Under the pieces are notes generated by a model. The model saw only the letters and a list, made by a program, of their open reading frames with translations. It was not told where the DNA came from and did no database searches. This document shows, piece after piece, positions 6,823 through 11,762 of a stretch of 12,328 nucleotides of DNA. This DNA is from Promethearchaeota archaeon (GTDB lineage: Archaea > Asgardarchaeota > Lokiarchaeia > Sigyniarchaeales > SOKP01). The position numbers and the translations under genes were made by a program. The stretch is taken from NCBI GenBank assembly GCA_048940645.1, contig JBHLOI010000081.1, forward strand, positions 1 to 12,328, read 5' to 3'. Position 1 is the stretch's first letter. Each line of letters opens with the position of its first letter.

Positions 6823-8118
6823 TTAGTGGGTAGCGCAAGAAATACATGGATCAAAAGCTCTTATAATTTTTTGAATTTCTTTCTTAACTTTATCTAAATC
6901 CTTTTTTTCATAGAGTTTTCGAGCATAATTACTGATCATATAGTTAATAAGTGGGATATTTATTTCTGTTGCTATAAATAATTTAGCTTCTTCAAGAATA
7001 TTTCTTTTATTAATTCTATAATGATGAATAAGCGATCCTCTAGGGGCTTCCACAACTCCAATACCTTCTCTAGAAATAATTGATTTAAGATTTGGAAGAG
7101 GAATGGTACTTTTTAAAATAGGGTCCTTTAAAACTTTTAATAAATTTTGTGATTCAACATACATTTCAATTAATTTTAAAATGGGGGCATATAGAAGGTT
7201 ATTTCTCCATTCTTTATCAAAAAGACTTAAGTATCCAGAAATATCATCTGATCCATAACTTTCTACAACCTGATTTCGAGAAATTGGTCCAACTAAATAA
7301 TGATTTTTATTATTAAAATCAATACCCCTTATTGTAGGATCTTTATCAAAATAATCTTTATATTCTTCTAACCTAAAGTTCTGATATTTTGCTAACCCAT
7401 TTTTTATGGTTAAAATACCATCATATCTATCATAGGATTTATTATTATTTAATGAAAGGAAATTAACATTTGGGATTATAAAATCCTCTGGTGGTTTAAA
7501 CTTTGAGAATAAATCAATAAAGTTTTTAATAATCCACTCTAAATTACTTAATACTCTTAAAAGGTATTTCTCAACAATAATTATCCTTTTCCGTGATGGG
7601 CTATAAATAACTCCGCCAGGGATAAGTGTAATTGTATGGATTGATCTTCCTCCAAAAAGCTTATCTATATCATTCCCGATTTTAATAATATCATATATTT
7701 GAGAGGTTAATTGTGGATTATATTTTATTAAATCATAAATATCGATAGGTTTTGTATAAATATTAAATATATTCAATAGATCTGGAAAAGATTGGAAAAA
7801 ATAATGCATACTATGTGATTTTAATAATTCCCCTGCCATCAAGAGCCTTCTTACTAGAACAGATTGTTGATTGGCTTTTATATTATACATTTCTTCAATG
7901 CTTTTACAGCTTACTATAGTTTGAGATGCATGACATAATCCACATATTCTAGAAACAATTTTAGGGACATCTGATAACTTTTTACCCAATAAAATATTTT
8001 CAAATCCTCTGAAGGCAAAAATTTCAAATTCCACATTCGAAATCTCATCATTTTGTATATAAATTTTTACATTACCGTGACCCTCAACCCTTGTACACAC
8101 ATCAATAACTTTTTGCAT
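6823..8118 (-). CDS. mvhA: Group 3 (MvhA-like) [NiFe]-hydrogenase large subunit, atypical: L1 His->Gln, no C-terminal extension
   Basis: Motifs TRVEGHG, RGFENIL, L1 RICGLCHASQ, HSMH, GGRSIH, VGPISR, EAPRGSLIHHY and L2 RAFDPCISCATH-TAA. All four Ni/Fe Cys are present. ATG at 8118 is preferred to TTG at 8121 and is preceded by SD-like GGTGA. Assignment to 3c rather than 3b rests on gene context. Confidence 0.92.
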   Translation of the reverse strand: MQKVIDVCTRVEGHGNVKIYIQNDEISNVEFEIFAFRGFENILLGKKLSDVPKIVSRICGLCHASQTIVSCKSIEEMYNIKANQQSVLVRRLLMAGELLKSHSMHYFFQSFPDLLNIFNIYTKPIDIYDLIKYNPQLTSQIYDIIKIGNDIDKLFGGRSIHTITLIPGGVIYSPSRKRIIIVEKYLLRVLSNLEWIIKNFIDLFSKFKPPEDFIIPNVNFLSLNNNKSYDRYDGILTIKNGLAKYQNFRLEEYKDYFDKDPTIRGIDFNNKNHYLVGPISRNQVVESYGSDDISGYLSLFDKEWRNNLLYAPILKLIEMYVESQNLLKVLKDPILKSTIPLPNLKSIISREGIGVVEAPRGSLIHHYRINKRNILEEAKLFIATEINIPLINYMISNYARKLYEKKDLDKVKKEIQKIIRAFDPCISCATH

Positions 8119-8122
8119 CAAA

Positions 8123-8881
8123 TCACCATCGTATTTTTGGTTTCGAGAATCTATAAAAGAGTGCTTTGTTTTTTATTAGATTTTTAGAGAGATTAATAAG
8201 ACTTAAAAAGTTTACCAAATTTGAGGTATAATCCTTAGATATTGGCCCTAAACATCCTTCACATGGTATTCCAAGTTCAATACATATATGATCGCAGCCC
8301 TCCCTAGTTATTGGTCCTAAGCATAAAATTCCATTATTTAAAAAGCAATTTGAATTTTCATCAAGAGCTGCTATCTCATCACCAGTAGGATTTAATTTAT
8401 AAATTGTTTTTTCAAAATGAATATTATTATTTCTTCTTAGAGGGCATGATGAGCATAGATTTTTTTCCGATAATTTTATTTCTTTATTTTCTATTAATCT
8501 TATTAAACAATTTCCTATAAGCTTTAAAGGAGGAGGACAACCAGGTATAATACCATCGATTTGGATAATATCTGATATTGCGCCTGCTTTTTTCTTTTCA
8601 GATAAACTTAAAATTCCCCCAAATGCTGCACAAGTACCTAGAGCATATACTTTTTTTGCATTATTTCTAATATCTTTTAATAATTCAATTTGTGAATCCA
8701 TCGAAATACAACCTTCTATTAAAGCGATATCGCATTCTTCAATTTTATTCTCATCAGAGATAAAGGGAAAGTAAGAAACTTTTACTCTTTCTAAAAACTG
8801 AGGAAATATATCACTTGAGATTAATTTAGAGATACATCCACTACAGGACGTCAGTGATGCGATTAAGATTTTAAGTTTCAA
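8123..8881 (-). CDS. mvhG: [NiFe]-hydrogenase small subunit (MvhG-like)
   Basis: Proximal-cluster motifs CSGC, GTCAAFGG and PGCPP. Medial/distal motifs CSSC, CFL...CLGPITREGC-x3-C-x6-CEGCLGP. TTG start with GGAGG SD at 8891-8895. Overlaps the upstream gene by 11 nt. Confidence 0.92.
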   Translation of the reverse strand: MKLKILIASLTSCSGCISKLISSDIFPQFLERVKVSYFPFISDENKIEECDIALIEGCISMDSQIELLKDIRNNAKKVYALGTCAAFGGILSLSEKKKAGAISDIIQIDGIIPGCPPPLKLIGNCLIRLIENKEIKLSEKNLCSSCPLRRNNNIHFEKTIYKLNPTGDEIAALDENSNCFLNNGILCLGPITREGCDHICIELGIPCEGCLGPISKDYTSNLVNFLSLINLSKNLIKNKALFYRFSKPKIRW

Positions 8882-11417
8882 ATCTAATTTCCTCCGTTAA
8901 TATGTTATAAAATTTATTTATTGTATTTGTAAATTTGGAACCTTCTACAGCATTCAGATTTTTTATAATAATCCTCCTACTTAATCGGGGACTTAATATT
9001 TTCTTTAACAATTTTACTTTTTTCTGAACTTTTTGAATTCCATCGATATATCTGCATGCATCTATTCTACATCCAATTACCATTACACCATCAAATCCAA
9101 ACTCAAAAGATTTAAGGATAAATTCTGTATCAATACGTCCTGTGCATGGAACTTTAATTATAAACACATTTGGATGATAGAATAATTTCTTTAATCCCGC
9201 ATCATCTGCAGCAGCATAGCCACAAGATTTACAGCAGAAAGCAAGAATCATTGGCTTTTTATTAAATTTAGAAAAAATTTCTATCGTTTTAAGTATTTTT
9301 TTGGAAGTATCAATATTCAAATCAATAGCATTTGTAGGACACACACTTACACATGATCCACAGCCTTTACATTTAAACTTATCGATATTTATTTTATCTC
9401 CTCCGATTACTATGGCATTATATGGACAAGATACTACGCATAATCCACATAACCCACACTTTTCTTCATTTATTTTAATTCCTGTAAATTCTGATACTAA
9501 GTAGTCATTTGAAAGAAGAAAGATTATTTCTAAGGCTGTTTGGTTTGTTGTTGAAATTGTAGATTTATAATTTAATGGCCCAAAAATCGTACCAACGCCA
9601 TAAATACCAGATGCTAATGTTTCTCTACTCATAAAACCATTATCATCTAAAGAAAAGTCCATGTATTTTCGAAGAGTTTTTAAGTCTTTGTTGGGAATAT
9701 ACTTAAGGTTTAATACTATCAAATCACTTGGAAATTCAGTACCGTCAGCAACAATATAGTTAATATCTTTATTATACTTAACAGAAATATGATTAGCGTA
9801 AATAAAACTAGAATTAGTTGATCGTAATAAAATCTGATCCTTATCATTTAATTTACTCAAATCATAAAAAACATTAACTTTACATTTACTATTTCTTATT
9901 TTAATATCCTCAATATATTTTTGTGCTAAAATTTCAGAGTAATCTGAGAGTAATTTTGAAGGTCCGACTTCTTGAACAATAGAAACCGAATTAACTGGTT
10001 TATTATCTGATATCCTTAATAGTTTCCCTTCTGTAATACCATCAGAAGATAATATACGCTCAAATTCAGGTGAAGTAATAATATTATTTTGAGGATTATA
10101 ATTATAATCCTTTAAATTCTCACTAAAATCTGCCCCGATAGCTATAACTTTTACACCAACCTTAATTCGAACTTTTTCTGGTTTTTTGTTTAAATTAATT
10201 GCATTATTAATACAAGCTCGTTCACAAATCCTGCAATCGAGACAATCTTCAATATCTTCGTCTTCAATCAAAGGGATATATGGATATGAATTCTGAAAAG
10301 GGATATATATAACTTTTCGAAGTGATAAACCGAAATCGAATTGATTCATTTTCTCCTTACCACAGACATTAATGCATTGTTTACAACCGGTACATTTTTT
10401 TTCATCTACATATCTAGGTTTTTTAATAAATTCAATCGTAAAATTTCCCACTTCTCCTGAGATAGTTTCAATTTCGCTATTTGTAAATATATTGATATTT
10501 TTTTCTTTAACTATTTCTCCAATCAATTCTGAAGTGAAACAAATAGAACAATCACCCATCTCAGAGATACGGTGCCATCTAGCCACTTTGCCTCCCAATG
10601 TTGGTGATTTTTCAATAAGATATACTTTTATTCCTGCTTTTGATAAATTCAGTGCTAAAGTCATACCTGCAATACCACCTCCTATTATTGCACAAGCTTT
10701 CTCAACTTCTACCGTTTTAATTTTAACTTCCTTTTGAAGTTTTACACGCTCAATTCCAGCTTCTATTAATAACTCTGTTTTTCTTAGAATTAGATCTGCA
10801 CTAACTTTTTCAAGATTTGAATCATGAACCCAACAGCATTGCTCCCTTATATTAGCAATTTCTATATTTGTATGTTCAATCACATCTTTAAAAATACGTT
10901 CAAAAATATGTTGGTGGGTTTTAGGAGAACAAGCTGCAATTACTACTTTATTTAGAAAATTTTGTTTTGCCCAAGATGAGATTTTATTTAAATTCTTTTC
11001 TTGACATAAATTATCAAATATCTTGACAGAAACAACATCATTCAACTTTGTTATATACTTCTCTAAGATTTTAATGTTAATAACATTAGAAATTTCAGTA
11101 TTACAATTACAGATTATTACGCCTATACGATTTATTATACTTCCCTTTTTATCCAAATATTCTAATTCCTCACCTGATAAAATGCGTTTGTTTAAACTTA
11201 TTATATTTAATACTCGTCTACCATCTTCTGTTAAAAAATAAGATCTTTTATCTTTACTAATCAATGACCCAAGTTTTTTTAAATGGAAATTTAATTGCCC
11301 CGTTTGGTCTAATCCCAATTTTTCCATTAAATCGGTGTAAGGAATGAATCCCTCTCTCTCTAAAAGTAATAGAATCTTTCTACGAAAAGGATGTGATAAT
11401 ATAGAGTAAATATTCAT
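8871..11417 (-). CDS. Fusion protein: ArsR-like wHTH + degenerate heterodisulfide reductase A (HdrA) + MvhD
   Basis: aa 1-~80 wHTH (LSHPFRRKILLLL...YTDLMEKLG...GQLNFHLKKL...YFLTEDG). HdrA N-domain (RIGVIICNC, AACSP, NIREQCCWVH). FAD Rossmann GGGIAG at aa 246, then DCSIC, an inserted 2x[4Fe-4S] ferredoxin, EFER, and a C-terminal 2x[4Fe-4S] ferredoxin. MvhD from about aa 722 (FCCKSCGY, VPCTGR, DGVMVIGC-x4-CRY). Confidence 0.93.
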   Translation of the reverse strand: MNIYSILSHPFRRKILLLLEREGFIPYTDLMEKLGLDQTGQLNFHLKKLGSLISKDKRSYFLTEDGRRVLNIISLNKRILSGEELEYLDKKGSIINRIGVIICNCNTEISNVINIKILEKYITKLNDVVSVKIFDNLCQEKNLNKISSWAKQNFLNKVVIAACSPKTHQHIFERIFKDVIEHTNIEIANIREQCCWVHDSNLEKVSADLILRKTELLIEAGIERVKLQKEVKIKTVEVEKACAIIGGGIAGMTLALNLSKAGIKVYLIEKSPTLGGKVARWHRISEMGDCSICFTSELIGEIVKEKNINIFTNSEIETISGEVGNFTIEFIKKPRYVDEKKCTGCKQCINVCGKEKMNQFDFGLSLRKVIYIPFQNSYPYIPLIEDEDIEDCLDCRICERACINNAINLNKKPEKVRIKVGVKVIAIGADFSENLKDYNYNPQNNIITSPEFERILSSDGITEGKLLRISDNKPVNSVSIVQEVGPSKLLSDYSEILAQKYIEDIKIRNSKCKVNVFYDLSKLNDKDQILLRSTNSSFIYANHISVKYNKDINYIVADGTEFPSDLIVLNLKYIPNKDLKTLRKYMDFSLDDNGFMSRETLASGIYGVGTIFGPLNYKSTISTTNQTALEIIFLLSNDYLVSEFTGIKINEEKCGLCGLCVVSCPYNAIVIGGDKINIDKFKCKGCGSCVSVCPTNAIDLNIDTSKKILKTIEIFSKFNKKPMILAFCCKSCGYAAADDAGLKKLFYHPNVFIIKVPCTGRIDTEFILKSFEFGFDGVMVIGCRIDACRYIDGIQKVQKKVKLLKKILSPRLSRRIIIKNLNAVEGSKFTNTINKFYNILTEEIRFET

Positions 11418-11762
11418 TTCAAAATCCTCTCTCTTTCGCTTTTATTATATTTTTTTTTTAAATTTTTAAATTTTGATAAATTTATTTTTCTTCATGATAA
11501 TGATTATTATCGAATTATTTAAATCTTTGTGAAATATTGATCATATAATTTATGAGATTCATAACTCACATTATGGATATTAGTCATTTTTCTGTTAATT
11601 TTAGATATAACTAAAAAAATTGTCCTATTAGGATTCTTGATTAAAAGATTTATCAAATTTAAAGAAATTATTCTTGTCAAATTCTTTTTATTTTGGTAAA
11701 ATAGTCATTTACTTAGAAAGTAAATTACTTGTAAATTTAAACTTAAAGAGGTGTATAGCTTA
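11418..11762. promoter_or_regulatory. Divergent promoter region between the wHTH-hdrA-mvhDGA operon and the next gene
   Basis: 345-bp very AT-rich gap. SD-like GAGAGG before ATG 11417 and GAGGTG (11748-11753) before ATG 11763. Contains several palindromes (see findings). Confidence 0.6.

Follow-up and report, generated by a model that had tools for sequence, protein, structure and literature searches.

In the MvhAGD-HdrABC complexes of methanogens, which are among the closest known systems to the one examined here, the high-potential electron of the reduced flavin travels through the iron-sulfur cluster HA4 to HdrC and HdrB, and the low-potential electron travels through HA3 to HA5 and HA6 of the inserted ferredoxin domain (PMC12350162, PMC13580544, PMC13518236). 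A Lys/Glu pair at the flavin N5 (K409/E356 in M. thermolithotrophicus) has been proposed as the mark of a bifurcating HdrA (PMC12054007). The methanogen enzymes also contain a DCxxC Cys pair (PMC13580544, PMC13518236), for which the role of a redox-active disulfide has been proposed (PMC13518236). In metabolic models of Asgard archaea, and hence in hydrogen-based scenarios for the origin of eukaryotes, the gene set 'MvhADG-HdrABC' routinely counts as an H2-dependent hydrogenase of the bifurcating or confurcating type (PMC7015854, PMC11291895). Here we examine a hydrogenase-linked HdrA encoded in a 12,328-nucleotide stretch of DNA (hereafter the window; contig JBHLOI010000081.1) from a Loki-type metagenome-assembled genome (MAG) of Promethearchaeota with a size of 3.83 Mb. 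This HdrA is fused at its N-terminus to a winged helix-turn-helix (wHTH) and at its C-terminus to an MvhD domain, and an initial annotation of the window had claimed that it has selectively lost the [4Fe-4S] cluster that feeds HdrBC.

Loss of the HA4 ligands from the window HdrA

The fusion protein belongs to family f1 (the labels f1 to f21 are arbitrary). In phmmer searches its residues 96-713 match solved HdrA structures (8rvu and 5odc, E 1e-99 to 1e-95) and residues 721-840 match MvhD. The alignment to solved HdrA pairs the canonical segment 'ihCvgSRdeqigkpyCsrvCC' with 'vqEvgp..skllsdySeila'. A MAFFT alignment with canonical and wHTH-bearing HdrA relatives, which we used to set the Cys and Lys positions, gives the same result: all four Cys of CxGSR..CSxxCC are replaced, as the initial annotation had read them, and the ligand columns hold E483 (9969-9971), L490 (9948-9950), S494 (9936-9938) and E495 (9933-9935). 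The coordinates and reading frame given for the site are also right, with minus-strand codon 482 at 9974-9972 and codon 500 at 9920-9918. The flavin-proximal Lys is kept as K500 (9918-9920); by alignment K500 and E453 correspond to K409 and E356 of M. thermolithotrophicus HdrA, and both are invariant or nearly so. We take the static cluster five residues upstream of this Lys, bound by the motif of the thioredoxin reductase (TrxR)-like domain, to be HA4, a name assigned by domain logic.

The other cofactor sites are intact. The four Cys of the HdrA N-terminal domain, the eight of the inserted ferredoxin domain and the eight of the C-terminal ferredoxin domain are each present in 99-100% of 120 homologues, and the same is true of the MvhD Cys and the DCxxC pair. 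The flavin adenine dinucleotide (FAD) motif, EFER and the Lys are kept as well, in line with what had been read from the single sequence. FAD binding is further indicated by the GxGxxG-type segment GGGIAG (residues 246-251), by Pfam Rossmann matches and by structural similarity to HdrA. An AlphaFold2 model of the core, built from a diverse alignment (predicted local distance difference test score, pLDDT, 90.4), superposes on solved HdrA with a template modelling (TM) score of 0.88 (8rvy_A, 7bkd_A), so the core still has the HdrA fold in the model, and the beta-loop-alpha-beta element at the former HA4 site is kept. From a whole-protein model based on a shallow family alignment (pLDDT 63) we drew no conclusion. 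Four additional Cys are common in the f1 clade, namely C194 (99%), C195 (78%), C242 (92%) and C512 (97%), with codons at about 10836-10832 (C194/C195), 10694-10692 and 9884-9882 of the window; they are not found together in relatives that retain HA4 (HA4+).

The absence of the four ligands is fixed in the family. It was found in 120 of 120 closest representatives of 90%-identity clusters, which public records label as Loki, Thor, Hod, Hermod or Odin MAGs. By comparison, about 15 other HdrA paralogues of the source genome all carry CxGSR..CSxxCC. The 149 nearest 50%-identity cluster representatives in a library of 1.8 billion proteins yielded 223 HdrA modules whose alignment spans the motif, and every one of them keeps the Cys set, 215 at the usual sites and 8 shifted to a CC..GC arrangement. 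Because the loss is fixed in the first set and absent from the paralogues and from the modules elsewhere, this census excludes chance as the source of the missing Cys. All HA4 Cys are also gone from two unrelated clusters of HdrA proteins of about 630 residues (P0269 and P0270), which have neither wHTH nor MvhD and retain the other clusters and the Lys. These were the only two further HA4-less lineages seen, and therefore the loss is rare but recurrent.

Estimates of dN/dS (omega), pooled over five non-overlapping close pairs, were 0.13 for the whole protein, 0.22 for the former HA4 segment, 0.13 for the subdomain that follows it and 0.14 for the wHTH. Across domains the range was 0.06-0.22, which corresponds to purifying selection in every domain. 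Column identity is lowest (0.55-0.73) in the former HA4 segment and the next subdomain, and reaches 0.8-0.9 elsewhere. The initial annotation had argued for targeted removal rather than random decay, and the data agree with it: only the four ligands are gone, the other ligands are invariant, the fold is kept, the state is fixed in the clade and selection is purifying.

Other peculiarities of the TrxR-like half need to be separated from the cluster loss. Compared with the methanogen consensus, the HPKL region has an eight-residue deletion, KTFPT reads RISEM, GPKDI reads GPLNY and DIR is absent. The initial annotation reported these changes correctly and described this half as eroded; the motifs are indeed altered, but an omega of 0.13-0.22 indicates divergence from the methanogen consensus, not decay. 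It had also listed the shorter inter-Cys loop and the RISEM segment alongside the missing cluster. Both were read correctly, but they are not tied to the loss: the short loop, a RISEM-like segment and the HPKL deletion are common to wHTH-bearing relatives that have all four HA4 Cys, and thus all three are older than the cluster loss and no part of it. A return of the second subdomain to NAD(P)H binding was also considered and rejected, as this subdomain has no glycine-rich dinucleotide motif.

The four-Cys relatives with the same wHTH-HdrA-MvhD architecture comprise the Asgard families f14, f9 and f18, a Bathyarchaeia cluster (P0126) and two further clusters, with 34-49% identity to the window protein. 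For the tree, the motif columns were left out and the root was placed on HdrA-MvhD fusions that lack a wHTH, the architecture of the nearest relatives without this domain (P0129, P0131, P0139). In it the wHTH clade is monophyletic (Shimodaira-Hasegawa-like approximate likelihood ratio test, SH-aLRT, 100). All HA4-less forms (f21, f3, L039, P0278 and f1) fall into one sub-clade, which includes the HA4+ family f18. The HA4 state takes one or two changes on this tree, and the branching near f18, f21 and P0278 is not settled. Several HA4-less forms have a lone Cys left at the former ligand sites (SSCY, TICD, CLCG, CQQD), and these look like ligands drifting off after the cluster had been abandoned. 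The initial annotation had named retention of the cluster by wHTH-bearing orthologues as evidence that would count against its claim. Such retention is found in the distant clades and in none of the 120 closest clusters; therefore it dates the loss rather than refuting it, with the wHTH fusion coming earlier and the loss later. Judging from the tree, HA4 loss is a derived, fixed trait of one wHTH-HdrA-MvhD clade.

The structural work cited above routes the high-potential electron through HA4 and so bears out the assignment of this cluster as the link from FAD to HdrC. As HA4 is the sole relay from the flavin to HdrC and HdrB, a complex that lacks it would be unable to reduce heterodisulfide through HdrBC, and hence classical bifurcation from H2 to disulfide and ferredoxin would not take place. 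We hold with high confidence that the cluster is absent and that the HdrBC branch is cut. That classical bifurcation is unlikely, as had been proposed, is a logical inference from the missing HA4. What would remain is a wire with two terminals, leading from [NiFe] through the MvhG clusters and the MvhD [2Fe-2S] cluster to FAD and on to the clusters of the C-terminal and inserted ferredoxin domains, which face ferredoxin. No hdrB or hdrC (CCG-domain or HdrC gene) was found beside the operon in 29 loci, HA4+ loci included, and about 25 CCG-domain genes are present elsewhere in the source genome.

Hydrogenase subunits, promoter and genomic context

The fusion gene is followed by genes for an MvhG-like and an MvhA-like subunit, and the three are closely packed on the minus strand of the window (Table 1). 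This three-gene operon is invariant across 29 loci of six families. Group 3c hydrogenases have defined L1 and L2 motifs (PMC6085437). The window MvhA has the L2 motif DPCxxCxxH and the MvhG and MvhD partners; its L1 does not match ICGxCxxxH, as Gln replaces His. Among solved structures, its closest matches belong to group 3 enzymes (7t2r_D, 5odc_F). The protein stops at the mature end of the L2 motif, without a C-terminal extension. H2-sensing regulatory hydrogenases (group 2b) are marked by two sequence traits, a Gln at the position of the L1 His and the lack of the extension (PMC5665086, PMC8159394), and the window MvhA has both. No gene for a HoxJ/HupT-type histidine kinase was found in the window or the 29 loci, and descent from group 2 is not supported.

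The distribution of these traits across clades is ordered. Families f14, f9 and f18 keep the HA4 Cys, the L1 His and the C-terminal tail of MvhA. In f21 the HA4 Cys are lost while L1 His and the tail are present; in f3 and L039 the HA4 Cys are lost, L1 has Gln and the tail is present; and in f1, including the window, the HA4 Cys are lost, L1 has Gln and the protein ends at the mature DPCxSCATH. L1 Gln and tail loss thus occur solely inside the HA4-less lineage. MvhA also outpaces HdrA in divergence by 13-23 identity points in HA4-less pairs, compared with a gap of mostly 0-10 points (up to 16 in f14-f18) in HA4+ pairs, in a small sample of related pairs.

The MvhG-like subunit keeps its cluster Cys and lacks about 35 residues of 5odc_E between its conserved halves (at residues ~95-100). 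A comparison of window positions 6823-11417 with another locus (L029:8001-12598) gave identities of 75% for HdrA, 89% for MvhG and 86% for MvhA, the reverse of every other pair; this mosaic similarity suggests recombination within the operon.

The wHTH matches DUF7347 and HTH_24 in Pfam, and its column identity in the family (0.86) is second only to that of the FAD Rossmann segment. Upstream of the f1, f21 and f3 operons we identified a 20-bp palindrome with the consensus TTGAYAA-N6-TTRTCAA. Of 38 regions, 18 contain a perfect copy, often at about -216, against about 4e-5 expected per upstream region. An earlier exact 6-mer search of 12 loci had given a weak palindrome signal only. Further half-sites occur at fixed offsets in the upstream regions; in the window one lies at about 11473-11479, ~62 nt upstream of the hdrA start. 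At the sequence level, the locus combines the two features of an ArsR/SmtB-type regulator, a winged helix and a palindromic candidate operator near its own gene.

Table 1. Features of the window that are discussed in the text, with their positions and the basis of each assignment.
Feature	Positions	Strand	Basis
wHTH-HdrA-MvhD fusion gene, 848 aa (P0001)	8871..11417	-	Open reading frame and translation; Pfam DUF7347/HTH, FAD Rossmann, Fer4, FlpD
ArsR-type winged helix, residues 1-80, recognition helix TGQLNFHLKKL	11178..11417	-	Pfam DUF7347 1.5e-10 (residues 1-75)
HdrA N-terminal domain, 4 invariant Cys (C103, C105, C138, C163)	10728..11129	-	Alignment, Cys census
FAD Rossmann GGGIAG (residues 246-251) to invariant DCSIC pair C290/C293	10539..10682	-	Pfam, alignment, census
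Inserted ferredoxin domain, 8/8 Cys invariant	10182..10412	-	Alignment, Cys census
EFER motif, E453 = E356 of M. thermolithotrophicus HdrA	10056..10067	-	Alignments, PMC12054007
Former HA4 [4Fe-4S] site, residues 482-501	9915..9974	-	Alignments, family census, AlphaFold2 model
C-terminal ferredoxin domain, 8/8 Cys kept	9273..9482	-	Alignment, Cys census
Fused MvhD domain, [2Fe-2S] Cys C729, C732, C758, C783, C788	8874..9272	-	FlpD 7e-34; alignment to 5odc_D; Cys census
MvhG-like small subunit, 252 aa (P0002)	8123..8881	-	Cluster Cys kept; 11-nt overlap with the hdrA stop
MvhA-like [NiFe] large subunit, 432 aa	6823..8121	-	L1 RICGLCHASQ at 7921-7950; end DPCISCATH at 6823-6852
Promoter palindrome TTGATTA-N6-TTATCAA	11637..11656	.	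Between hdrA and the divergent gene; 1 mismatch to family consensus
Divergent conserved neighbour 'up192', no Pfam match, truncated by contig end	11751..12326	+	Recurs at other loci

The hydrogenase operon is followed by guaA, a gene for an M3 peptidase and a glutamate-synthase-like gene. On its other side, the truncated neighbour up192 has paralogues whose N-terminal part is fused, at other loci, to an MtdB-like dehydrogenase (Mpt_N plus NAD(P) Rossmann) in a protein of ~560 aa (for example L126:1834-3516 and L121:4728-6422). In the HA4+ families f14 and f9 this X-Mpt_N-Rossmann gene is a downstream member of the operon itself, and in f1 and f21 it is divergent.

The source genome encodes two more [NiFe] large subunits. 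One cluster (C94:40826-44970) contains MvhG, MvhA and a CCG-domain HdrB-like gene, and its L1 keeps His (RICGICPIPH); it is similar to what is reported as the only hydrogenase of the cultured, H2-producing MK-D1, described as MvhA-HdrB-HdrC-MvhG. We considered whether the window operon is the sole hydrogenase of MK-D1 and rejected this on the gene content just given. As the MK-D1 hydrogenase is a different gene set, the physiology of MK-D1 is not transferable to the window operon. Several HdrA paralogues and adjacent MvhD genes of the source genome contain an in-frame TGA (C77:3035-4948, C13:3419-5371, C107:9976-11862, C70:190-2067), which most likely encodes selenocysteine; this residue has been reported in HdrA of Asgard archaea.

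Possible roles of the complex

We give an even chance to the reading in which the complex serves mainly as a redox/H2 sensor whose output is its own wHTH. Without the high-potential drain, H2 and the ferredoxin pool would determine the redox state at which the flavin and the clusters come to rest. The HdrA N-terminal domain is part of a mobile arm in the methanogen enzymes, and here this domain bears the wHTH; it could signal that redox state to the palindrome conserved in the promoter of its own operon. The complex would then serve chiefly as an H2/redox gene switch of the one-component kind, and its H2:ferredoxin turnover would be slow at most. The living Asgard clades suggest an order of events in which the wHTH fusion was followed by HA4 loss, then by the change from L1 His to Gln and then by loss of the maturation tail. 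A little less firmly, we propose that HA4 loss may have been the first step from a bifurcating Mvh-Hdr enzyme to a self-contained H2/redox-sensing transcription factor; this would be a [NiFe] hydrogenase-flavoprotein complex that has given up its catalytic outlet and whose fused wHTH conveys the redox state straight to DNA.

Several observations speak against this overall reading of a cut HdrBC branch and a sensory role. The wHTH is also present in the HA4+ clades and the target half-site occurs upstream in the HA4+ families f14 and f9, and any DNA binding would therefore be independent of the loss. The window's own copy of the palindrome has one mismatch to the consensus, and in the source genome as a whole near-matches to the palindrome number 22, compared with ~20 expected, with no perfect copy; as it is not enriched genome-wide, no regulon can be named. 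The HA4+ relatives likewise have no adjacent hdrBC, so synteny alone is no proof of independence from HdrBC. In the Ralstonia enzyme the L1 Gln was reported to be dispensable for H2 sensing (PMC5665086). In at least one 99%-complete genome of the family (G049), the only PF00374 large subunit is the window-type one, which would be odd for a pure sensor. The invariance of all eight Cys in the inserted ferredoxin domain fits a ferredoxin-coupled enzyme equally well. Finally, K500 and E453 are retained, and the flavin may therefore still bifurcate to some other acceptor.

In a competing explanation, the complex could be a catalytic, non-bifurcating ferredoxin:H+ oxidoreductase working in H2 evolution or uptake, with FAD as a mere relay and a wHTH that merely autoregulates the operon. 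The wire from [NiFe] to the ferredoxin domains is complete and invariant, the genes of the operon are closely coupled and subject to strong purifying selection, and the near-complete genome just mentioned has no second PF00374 large subunit; extension-less large subunits are, moreover, known in some catalytic enzymes (Ech/Coo type). Asgard physiology also requires ferredoxin to be re-oxidized through H2 formation (PMC7015854). However, L1 Gln together with the absent extension is the sensor signature, MvhA evolves fast relative to HdrA, which is the opposite of what is expected for a high-flux subunit, H2 production by MK-D1 relies on another hydrogenase, and a plain one-electron wire has no need of a flavin with the K/E pair. 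On balance we regard a purely catalytic role as somewhat unlikely. A still bifurcating complex with a new high-potential outlet, which could be C290/C293 passing electrons to a thiol/disulfide, a flavin-bound substrate or a docked MtdB-like dehydrogenase, would account for the kept K500/E453 (PMC12054007), for the invariant DCxxC with its proposed disulfide chemistry (PMC13518236) and for the conserved neighbouring X-Mpt_N-Rossmann gene. We consider such an outlet distinctly improbable, given that the remodelled second subdomain has no dinucleotide-binding GxGxxG and that the sensor-like changes in MvhA would be left unexplained; since the HA4+ relatives have the Cys pair and the neighbour just as well, neither looks like a replacement for HA4.

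There is very little probability, in our view, that the cluster is re-ligated by the extra Cys (C194, C195, C242 and C512) or that HdrC docks and is reached directly. The four extra Cys are widespread in the f1 clade, but C194 is shared with HA4+ and canonical HdrA and C512 with the HA4+ family f18, C195 is Ala or Val in 22%, and C242 lies in the first Rossmann strand; on this distribution, the four were not gained together with the loss. As for direct transfer, in the 5ODC geometry FAD would be too far from the first HdrC cluster for electron tunnelling without HA4. The least probable explanation, to which we assign practically no weight, is a decaying remnant heading towards a pseudogene. 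It could appeal to the former HA4 segment and the next subdomain as the least conserved parts of the protein, but more than 100 species-level clusters have an uninterrupted frame, those very parts show omega values of 0.22 and 0.13 and the other ligands are invariant, which rules out pseudogene decay.

Comparison with known systems

As the hydrogenase-linked HdrA of the Loki-type family would be unable to feed HdrBC, its gene set should not be counted as a heterodisulfide-coupled bifurcase in the metabolic models and evolutionary scenarios described above. A search of the literature found no published description of a wHTH-HdrA fusion or of an Asgard H2 sensor. If the sensor interpretation is true, this would be, to our knowledge, the first hydrogenase-based H2 sensor in archaea, and its one-component design would differ from the kinase-coupled sensor of bacteria.

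The window complex resembles MvhAGD-HdrABC of methanogens (5ODC, 8RVU/8RVY, 7BKB, 9SW2) in its MvhA/G hydrogenase, its MvhD and an HdrA that carries the FAD motif, the K/E pair, the cluster of the N-domain and both ferredoxin domains, inserted and C-terminal, and whose core model superposes on solved HdrA with a TM score of 0.88. It differs in having neither HA4 nor adjacent HdrBC, in the fusion of MvhD to HdrA, in the N-terminal wHTH and in an MvhA with L1 Gln and no C-terminal extension. A C-terminal MvhD fused to HdrA is also found in the HdrA2 or 'type Ia' fusions, such as HdrA2B2C2 of Methanosarcina acetivorans (PMC12054007); these, however, keep the four HA4 Cys, work with HdrBC, and have neither a wHTH nor a dedicated hydrogenase operon. 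HoxBC-HoxJ of Cupriavidus necator (group 2b) shares L1 Gln, the missing extension and the proposed logic of a hydrogenase as signal input. It is a bacterial system with a hydrogenase of another group, and its output is a histidine kinase with a response regulator, whereas in the window complex the output would be a wHTH fused to the flavoprotein.

The sHdrA of Hyphomicrobium denitrificans (6TJR) has the same FAD-binding thioredoxin reductase fold (Foldseek TMt 0.79) and is regarded as non-bifurcating. We take it to be a mirror image of the window protein, in that sHdrA presumably keeps only the cluster of the TrxR domain and the window HdrA lacks only that one. The nearest comparison is provided by the HA4+ wHTH relatives (f14, f9, f18 and P0126), which share the wHTH fusion, the three-gene operon, the short loop, the RISEM-like segment and the HPKL deletion, and differ in having the four Cys, an MvhA with L1 His and C-terminal tail, and a mostly kept GPK (GPA in f18). 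Orthologues with and without HA4 form a natural series in which the contribution of the high-potential branch to flavin-based bifurcation can be studied.

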